From UHGV virus genome UHGV-0017337: 43,119 nt of DNA. The stretch is one strand, 5' to 3'. How positions within the stretch are numbered: the stretch's first letter is position 1; each line of letters starts with the position of its first letter. A program made the translations under genes and the position numbers. Below the pieces are notes generated by a model that was not told the DNA's origin, searched no databases, and saw only the letters and a list, made by a program, of their open reading frames with translations. Shown piece by piece: positions 38,994 to 39,911 of this stretch. Source of the DNA: a virus.

Positions 38994-39911
38994 ATGAACT
39001 TCTTCAAAAATGCAATTATCTACCGCATCAGTAATCCTATGTCGCTGATGGCGCAACTGGCAACCATCGAACAACAGTTGCTACCTTTCCAGTTTACGCC
39101 CTGTGGTTCACAGGATATGACGCGTACTGGATGGGTTCCGGCAACTGAACAACATCAGACGCTGGTTCACCAGGCTAACGGACAATTTCTACTGACCATC
39201 CAGAAACAGGAAAAGATTATTCCGGGTCCGGTCATCAAACAACATCTGAACGCGCGAATCGCCAAACTGGAAGCGGAACAGGCGCGTAAGCTGAAGAAAA
39301 CAGAGAAAGACGCGCTGAAAGACGAAGTGTTGCACAGTCTGTTACCACGGGCATTCGTTAAAAACAGTCGTACACAGTTGTGGATTGATATTACTAACGG
39401 GTTGATCGTGGTTGATGCGTCCAGTGCTAAACGGGCTGAAGATGCGTTAGCGCTATTGCGTAAATCCCTGGGTAGTCTGCCAGTCGTCCCGCTGACGATG
39501 GAAAACCCTGTTGAACTGACAACAACGGAGTGGGTACAACTCGGTAAAGTCCCTGGCGGTTATTTCGCGATGGGTGATTCTGCGGAACTAAAAGCGATCC
39601 TGACTGATGGCGGTGTTGCACGCGTTAAAAAACAGGATTTAACCAGTGATGAAATAGCCACGCATATTGAAGCTGGGAAAGTCGTTACAAAACTGGCGTT
39701 GGACTGGCAGCAGCGGATAACGTTCACGCTAACTGATAGCATGACGTTAAGCCGTCTGAAGTTCTGCGACGAGTTGCTCGACCAAAACGACGATATTGAC
39801 CTTGAAGACAGTCTGGCACGATTTGACGCTGATTTTGTACTGATGACAGGTGAACTTCAGGCGCTGATCAAACAACTTATCACTGCTTTGGGTGGGGAGA
39901 CTAAACGATGA
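38994..39911 (+). CDS. rdgC: RdgC-like recombination-associated DNA-binding protein
   Basis: Near-full-length collinear match by eye to E. coli RdgC (e.g. [112 protein letters not shown]). Confidence 0.8.

Follow-up and report, generated by a model that had tools for sequence, protein, structure and literature searches.

The rdgC gene of the viral genome UHGV-0017337 (coding sequence 38994..39911, + strand) falls within the RdgC family on all of the sequence-level criteria tested, and its product would, with a probability of roughly 55%, be a functional RdgC-family clamp on double-stranded DNA (dsDNA), of an old phage-borne lineage, which restrains host RecA and SOS activity on phage DNA. The stretch analyzed, hereafter the window, comprises 43,119 nucleotides (nt). 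The annotation of the gene as a phage-lineage RdgC, predicted to act as a ring-shaped dimer, draws on its open reading frame (ORF) and on matches to PF04381, 2OWL, PHROG 724, and NF001462.

The reading frame runs from an ATG to a TGA and encodes 305 amino acids (aa), just where an earlier sequence-only reading of the window had placed it. That reading had also described, by eye, a nearly collinear match to Escherichia coli RdgC, and both profile searches and alignment have borne this out. Specifically, tblastn aligned the phage protein with E. coli K-12 RdgC from end to end at 66.7% identity (306 columns, three small indels), and the two are similar in length and in single-domain architecture and collinear throughout. 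Pfam PF04381 returned 378 bits (gathering cutoff, 25; E=4e-113) over model positions 2-298 of 298. Among solved structures, the matches were 2owl_A, the E. coli protein (E=7e-128, phage residues 2-305 against 2-303), and 2owy_A, that of Pseudomonas aeruginosa (E=1e-66, phage residues 3-302 against 2-300). PHROG 724 was matched at E=1e-124, and the scores for the NCBIfam equivalog NF001462 (414 bits) and the subfamily model NF001464 (327 bits) exceeded their respective cutoffs of 330 and 227. By direct reading of the sequence, a Shine-Dalgarno motif, AGGA (38984-38987, + strand), lies 6 nt 5' of the rdgC ATG. The stop codon of the upstream ORF occupies 38989-38991, 2 nt ahead of that ATG, and the rdgC stop codon overlaps the ATG of the next ORF (ATGA, 39908-39911).

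Family names and existing annotations would make this protein an exonuclease. Such labels are found in the related phages PDP46, AVIO78A, SP-062/069, and Bas82, in PHROG 724 ("exonuclease recombination-associated"), and in Pfam itself ("Putative exonuclease, RdgC"). The identity was nonetheless rejected as extremely unlikely: RdgC is the only Pfam match, neither an activity nor a domain of the nuclease kind is on record for RdgC or could be detected in the E. coli protein (PMC1885664), and the solved RdgC structures are DNA-binding rings devoid of a catalytic site (PMC11077077, PMC2965237, PMC1885664). The label derives from genetic work on recBC sbcBC strains depleted of exonucleases and not from an enzyme assay, as a title cited in PMC1885664 indicates. 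As applied to phage RdgC, it is unsupported and historical, and the annotation should read "RdgC-family DNA-binding protein".

The residues on which RdgC function depends are retained in the phage protein. Work by Briggs et al. on E. coli RdgC has demonstrated that F120 in the gate and Q212, E218, and K227 in the horseshoe are essential in vivo, that R118 and H222 contribute mildly, and that the basic fingertip residues R97, K98, K100, and K101 are required for loading the ring onto circular DNA (PMC2965237). All ten of these mutagenesis-defined residues are identical in the phage protein, namely R119 and F121 in the gate, Q214, E220, H224, and K229 at the horseshoe interface with its hydrogen-bond network, and R98, K99, K101, and K102 at the fingertip. 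Similarly, Ha et al. have shown that eight pore-lining basic residues of P. aeruginosa RdgC are needed for dsDNA binding (PMC1885664). The residues compared were R4, K70, R81, R122, K146, R198, R208, and R252, and their phage equivalents (K5, K71, K82, K123, R147, K200, R210, and R254) are basic in 8 of 8 cases. Conservation is highest in the finger segment, residues 77-116, at 88% identity to E. coli, and lowest in the N-terminal ~76 residues, at about 48-50%, where 18 fixed differences separate phage from host. Net charge is -3 in the phage protein versus -8 in that of E. coli. From the 66.7% identity to 2OWL, we infer a toroidal homodimer fold.

Because the ring-closure, loading, and DNA-binding residues have all been kept, RdgC-like activity, that of a DNA clamp antagonizing RecA and SOS, is the natural inference. 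The biochemistry of the family is known from the E. coli, P. aeruginosa, and Neisseria proteins. Cellular RdgC is a ring-shaped dimer that binds double- and single-stranded DNA (ssDNA) non-specifically, dsDNA and DNA ends being preferred. Its inhibition of RecA strand exchange comes mainly from tying up the duplex partner; it also reduces the ATPase activity of RecA and the cleavage of LexA, and in priA mutants it counters RecFOR-dependent loading of RecA. An exponentially growing host cell contains ~1000 RdgC dimers, a stationary-phase cell ~50 (PMC11077077, PMC2965237, PMC1885664). The E. coli protein loads itself onto circular DNA by means of its finger (PMC2965237).

By extension, the phage protein would form a ring-shaped homodimer, with a basic finger that would load the ring onto DNA and a basic pore that would encircle duplex DNA without sequence specificity, preferring ends. 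Once on the duplex, and judging from the E. coli biochemistry, it would deny RecA filaments their strand-exchange partner and lower both RecA ATPase activity and LexA cleavage. More speculatively, the extra dose of RdgC may exclude host RecA, whether loaded by RecFOR or by RecBCD, from replication and concatemer intermediates of the phage and damp the SOS response, and recombination and concatemer formation might thereby fall to the exonuclease and the Gp2.5-like annealase of the phage itself. One may also speculate that phage RdgC matters most in slow-growing cells, where the host protein is scarce. Bas82 encodes a Gp2.5-like annealase, an exonuclease, a DNA polymerase, a helicase, and a primase, with the annealase and exonuclease genes adjoining that of the polymerase, and the region matching these two genes falls just outside the window, upstream of the polymerase gene at 299-2155.

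Several considerations weigh against such a role for the phage protein. The literature yielded no functional study, whether of phenotype or of biochemistry, for any phage RdgC or HrdC ("hrdC" retrieving mostly the unrelated HRDC domain). The gene is dispensable for this type of phage, as Sasha and 9NA do without it, and P1 hrdC has proved non-essential by CRISPR interference (CRISPRi; PMC10695390). The host already supplies RdgC, so the gain from a second copy is questionable, and Neisseria RdgC promotes recombination-dependent pilin variation instead of inhibiting it (PMC2965237). Given the divergent N-terminus, the partner specificity of phage RdgC could differ from that of the host protein. 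An AlphaFold2 (AF2) monomer, built from a shallow alignment of 17 sequences (phage RdgC and 16 database relatives, 81-92% identical), reached a mean predicted local distance difference test score (pLDDT) of 42.9 and a predicted template modeling score (pTM) of 0.25, a poor model. Finally, the timing of rdgC expression is read from sequence only.

As to its origin, sequence comparison places the rdgC of the window in an old, selectively maintained, phage-borne lineage that is not orthologous to chromosomal enterobacterial rdgC. The sequence-only reading had posed recent capture from a host as a question for phylogeny, and a captured gene riding along as a neutral passenger would account for the high similarity to enterobacterial RdgC and for a G+C content (GC) of 48.3%, which exceeds the 43.3% average of the window and lies nearer the 51.7% of E. 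coli rdgC. This GC value, however, lies inside the normal range of the window (0.37-0.49). Likewise, across all the Enterobacterales genera sampled, Kosakonia to Providencia, phage RdgC is 62-67% identical to the chromosomal protein, whereas the chromosomal proteins are 70-97% identical among themselves. In a bootstrapped neighbor-joining (NJ) tree computed with numpy distances, RdgC of Sasha-type phages grouped together with 100% support, outside a clade (96% support) that united the 24 chromosomal sequences; the P1-type HrdC and the prophage RdgC of Serratia, Pectobacterium, and Brenneria branched in the same poorly resolved basal region of the tree. At the DNA level, 71% of the gene aligns with E. 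coli rdgC, at ~71% identity, and the synonymous divergence (dS) between the two is saturated (>2). Phage RdgC also falls short of NF001460, the strict enterobacterial equivalog, scoring 470 bits where the cutoff is 501 and E. coli RdgC reaches 664. The tree and the saturated dS refute recent capture, and a ratio of nonsynonymous to synonymous divergence (dN/dS) of 0.12-0.19 within the phage clade, indicative of purifying selection, argues against a neutral passenger, so that we regard this origin as most improbable. Position differs as well: the E. coli gene resides at the chromosomal mak-rdgC-ppnP locus, while the phage gene resides in an accessory cassette. The antisense ORFs of 40-64 aa within rdgC were dismissed as mechanical, since it is the + frame that is under purifying selection. 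Phage rdgC lineages that are old, selectively maintained, and distinct from host rdgC imply that phages keep the gene for some reason.

The window itself is that of a 9NA/Sasha-type (Sashavirus/Nonanavirus-type) virulent enterobacterial siphovirus. It encodes a DNA polymerase (299-2155), a methyltransferase (3293-3931, not adjacent to rdgC), a tailspike, tail proteins, a tape measure protein, a major head protein, a portal protein, and the products of terL and terS, together with at least two homing endonucleases; the polymerase, portal, head, tape measure, tail, terL, and terS genes agree with the phage setting given by the sequence-only reading. The window is identical to a 44.5-kb metagenome contig, and the DNA of the locus is 85-94% identical to that of Escherichia phages PDP46, AVIO78A, and KarinMuster (Bas82), Sashavirus BDX09P1, and Salmonella phage Sergei. 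Phages of this type are virulent and lack lysogeny genes (PMC4153490, PMC3728262), and neither an integrase nor a repressor turned up among the large ORFs of the window.

This lifestyle bears on the idea that phage RdgC might serve in superinfection exclusion or bias the choice between lysis and lysogeny, after the manner of lambda RexA. RexA shares the RdgC fold (PMC11077077), and Casjens and colleagues have made this suggestion for the RdgC homologs of lambdoid phages (PMC12315714). The present protein, though, is a close homolog of RdgC (67% to E. coli) and not of RexA, with only the RdgC model matching in Pfam, and no RexB-like partner was recognized among the flanking ORFs by Pfam or PHROG. 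As the phage is virulent, without a partner gene or a lysogeny module, its RdgC is not operationally of the RexA type, and a role of this kind seems very unlikely.

Orthologs of rdgC have been annotated, as RdgC or as recombination-associated, in Sergei (gp07), PDP46 (gp0005), Bas82 (Bas82_0099), AVIO78A, and Salmonella phages FSL SP-062/SP069, and the protein of the window shares ~86-88% amino-acid identity with those of Sergei and Bas82. In Sergei, PDP46, Bas82, and metagenomic relatives, rdgC occupies an equivalent position; among close relatives, this is a site in a small-gene cassette between terL and terS, with equivalent promoter and terminator elements. The small genes 5' of rdgC are mosaic in comparison with these relatives, and the window differs from them in having a 52-aa ORF and a Tad2 gene between rdgC and a 111-aa ORF. 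The gene is accessory in 9NA/Sasha-type phages, because rdgC is not among the small genes that separate terS from terL in Sasha, a congener of Sergei with only three of them, or in 9NA, with nine.

Beyond this group, at least 120 database clusters are at least 80% identical to phage RdgC, many of them on contigs of ~55-61 kb. A tblastn search found 504 phage records with an RdgC homolog, 335 of these near full length. On E. coli plasmids there were 565 rdgC matches, P1-like elements included. Phage and plasmid homologs on record include P1 HrdC, ICP1 ORF173, PHROG 724, and those of lambdoid prophages, Pseudomonas Hollowayvirus, and Vibrio phages. They show that carriage of RdgC by phages is of long standing and extends over many lineages. 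Phage-borne RdgC is already known, being annotated in sister phages and in ~500 phage records, and as a sequence feature the present gene changes nothing, as it is recognizable with standard tools.

The more distant homologs, those of P1 (HrdC) and P1-like elements, lambdoid prophages, Hollowayvirus, and Vibrio phages, are only 25-59% identical to the protein of the window, with the gate and horseshoe residues conserved. Their surroundings vary. In P1-like phage-plasmids, the rdgC homolog sits beside the Dmt methyltransferase gene; in Hollowayvirus, beside genes for a single-stranded DNA-binding protein (SSB) and a LexA-like protein; and in Vibrio phage XM1, beside an integrase and an exonuclease gene. 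In Serratia and Pectobacterium prophages, the gene follows O/P-like replication genes and precedes methyltransferase genes, and its product carries a C-terminal FtsK/SpoIIIE-like extension. These prophage genes are second, divergent copies in Serratia quinivorans (L040, 2989-4131) and Pectobacterium sp. B1J-3 (L061, 2989-4137); their products are 380-382 aa long, with a C-terminal extension of ~75 aa that matches FtsK/SpoIIIE-like PHROGs, and the RdgC of Pseudomonas phage CF69a is likewise extended (406 aa). Finally, the adjacency of rdgC to a downstream DNA methyltransferase gene (Dmt/Dam) recurs in P1-like phage-plasmids (L085, 2989-6891; L086, 2725-5891) and in lambdoid prophages (L040, L061), which suggests a link to DNA-modification and replication modules in the P1-like and lambdoid lineages.

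Within the window, rdgC lies in a ~4.5-kb block of small + strand genes (36693-41162) between terL (34599-36362, using its likely true start) and terS (41249-41944), opposite in orientation to both. Directly 5' of rdgC is a 78-aa ORF (38755..38991, + strand; 75 aa in the public gene call of metagenomic L100) of unassigned function, which shares the transcription unit of rdgC and has no Pfam or PHROG match. On the 3' side, a 52-aa ORF (39908..40066, + strand), also of unassigned function, begins at the ATG that overlaps the rdgC stop. It is followed by the Tad2-family gene discussed below and by the 111-aa ORF (40322..40657, + strand), which matches a PHROG of unknown function (phrog_1229, E=9e-39) and has no Pfam, PDB, or NCBIfam match. 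A gene of the same size stands directly 3' of rdgC in Sergei (gp05), PDP46, Bas82, and metagenomic L096; the 111-aa ORF is, then, the usual 3' neighbor of rdgC in relatives and a possible functional partner of phage RdgC. The nine remaining small ORFs of the cassette had no Pfam matches.

Two putative promoters precede rdgC in the cassette. The first, P1 (36429..36467, + strand), lies in the intergenic region between terL and the first cassette gene and consists of an A/T-rich tract, a -35 element TTGACA (36439-36444), a 17-nt spacer, and a -10 element TATATT (36462-36467), matching the consensus at 11 of 12 positions; it is conserved in Sergei and PDP46. The internal promoter P2 (38105..38143, + strand; -35 TTGACG at 38115-38120, -10 TAGACT at 38138-38143) is of the same family and is the closest one 5' of rdgC. 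Both contain the 15-mer AAAATAATTCTTGAC, of which the window holds nine exact copies against 0.16 expected, at 14485, 24385 (- strand), 24676, 28537, 29679, 32775, 36429, 38105, and 40694. Aligned with one another, the nine sites share the A/T-rich tract, a -35 of TTGACR, the 17-nt spacer, and a -10 of TAnnnT, followed at most sites by a Shine-Dalgarno motif and an ATG, and most of these promoters head small-gene blocks that run antiparallel to structural genes. Promoter-like sites in the region overall occur at chance level (14 versus 13.6 expected), and the repeated 15-mer family was the sole promoter evidence accepted.

The rdgC transcription unit is closed by a predicted intrinsic terminator (40666..40690, + strand), in which a hairpin of the form ACCCCGG-loop-CCGGGGT (40666-40685) is followed by a T-run; the copy of the 15-mer at 40694 lies just past this hairpin, while those at 36429 and 38105 are upstream of rdgC. 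The terminator is annotated as such in Sergei and has been kept in Sergei, Bas82, L096, and metagenomic L100, with stem and loop changes that preserve hairpin pairing. Taken as a whole, the unit is apparently driven by host RNA polymerase from a conserved family of sigma70-type promoters, and rdgC is probably expressed early. The "early block" of the sequence-only reading stands to the extent that promoters of this type fit transcription by the host polymerase and early expression, but the actual timing has been deduced from the DNA.

Some further features of the window may be recorded here. With its GTG start, the mechanical terL ORF (34599-36587; 662 aa) probably exceeds the true gene, its homologs being of 587 aa; the ATG at 36362 (MNKFTGN...) yields a product of just that length and leaves an intergenic region of ~330 bp, which contains cassette promoters and presumably the terL promoter as well. 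Two paralogous HNH/homing-endonuclease genes (phrog_681/559; 14735-15838 and 31913-32788, + strand) lie inside the - strand structural module, and Sasha likewise has a homing endonuclease gene beside terL. Beyond terS, the segment 42000-43119 is of low GC (37%), with only short, dubious ORFs, and may be where the pac region or regulatory sequences lie. No tRNA genes or Rfam families were found in the window, so the locus conceals no RNA element.

The Tad2-family (DUF2829) gene encodes 85 aa (40068..40325, + strand) and probably starts at the ATG at 40068, although the mechanical ORF list starts it at a GTG at 40059; the length agrees with the public gene call in L100. The product matches Pfam Tad2-like PF11195 (89.9 bits, 1.6e-25) and, over its full length, SPO1 Gp34.65/Tad2 (PDB 8SME, E=9e-18). 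The DUF2829 candidate noted from the sequence alone is, in other words, a genuine Tad2 homolog, located two genes 3' of rdgC. With the 52-aa ORF, it forms a lineage-specific insertion 3' of rdgC: Tad2 is absent from beside rdgC in five of the five other contexts examined, namely Sergei, PDP46, Bas82, and metagenomic L094 and L096. Sergei gp06, which does lie beside rdgC, was checked for likeness to Tad2 and had no Pfam match.

This neighbor had prompted the suggestion of an anti-defense island. Under such an explanation, the RdgC ring would shield phage DNA ends or replication intermediates from RecBCD or defense nucleases, or would mute immunity that senses DNA damage, RecA, or ssDNA. A member of the Tad2 family, a Thoeris/cyclic-nucleotide sponge family, is indeed present in the rdgC transcription unit, and the cassette is hypervariable and accessory, as is typical of counter-defense loci. 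RdgC has a raised affinity for DNA ends (PMC1885664), headful-packaged linear DNA exposes such ends (PMC4153490), and SOS inhibitors have been counted among the anti-defense genes of plasmids (PMC11541004). Against this, the co-localization of Tad2 with rdgC is kept neither in relatives nor in other lineages, no other ORF of the cassette matched a known anti-defense family in Pfam or PHROG, and Bas82, which carries rdgC, is not unusually robust against the defense systems tested (PMC11990801). In other phage lineages, the neighbors of rdgC are replication genes, SSB genes, and methyltransferase genes, so that the recurrent context of rdgC is one of DNA replication and modification, not counter-defense. 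Finally, no paper linking RdgC to anti-defense was found in the literature. The Tad2 gene nearby thus stands, while the island as such is possible but weakly supported, and the explanation as a whole is doubtful.

A related proposal, equally tentative, is that phage RdgC may be a dedicated clamp on phage DNA, covering ends, gaps, and concatemers and preventing the activation of RecA, RecFOR, RecBCD, or immunity that senses damage, ssDNA, or ends (e.g., SOS-induced prophages or toxins). The literature remarks on the scarcity of known RecA modulators encoded by phages (PMC9043618); were the dedicated clamp real, RdgC would join the very few known phage-encoded antagonists of RecA and SOS, and its presence in ~1% of sequenced phages would be explained. 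Bas82_0099, an ortholog in a publicly distributed phage of E. coli K-12 from the BASEL collection, offers a tractable model for both the RecA/SOS and the anti-defense hypotheses.

The limiting of host RecA and SOS by a phage RdgC, the role favored above, has functional parallels among mobile elements. Lambda RexA, the structural relative, is not detectably similar to RdgC in sequence, acts together with RexB in a temperate phage, and crystallizes in a closed, non-ring form. A functional parallel is AriS of Listeria phages, an inhibitor of RecA and SOS; those who described it noted that they had come across no published case of a phage protein that interferes with RecA (PMC9043618). The likeness to RdgC is one of functional analogy only, with no relationship in sequence or fold. 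The same applies to PsiB, the RecA/SOS brake of conjugative plasmids (PMC11541004), which is likewise analogous in function and unrelated in sequence and fold. The target of PsiB is free RecA, that of RdgC is DNA, and a phage RdgC serving as a dedicated clamp would be the DNA-directed analogue of PsiB.

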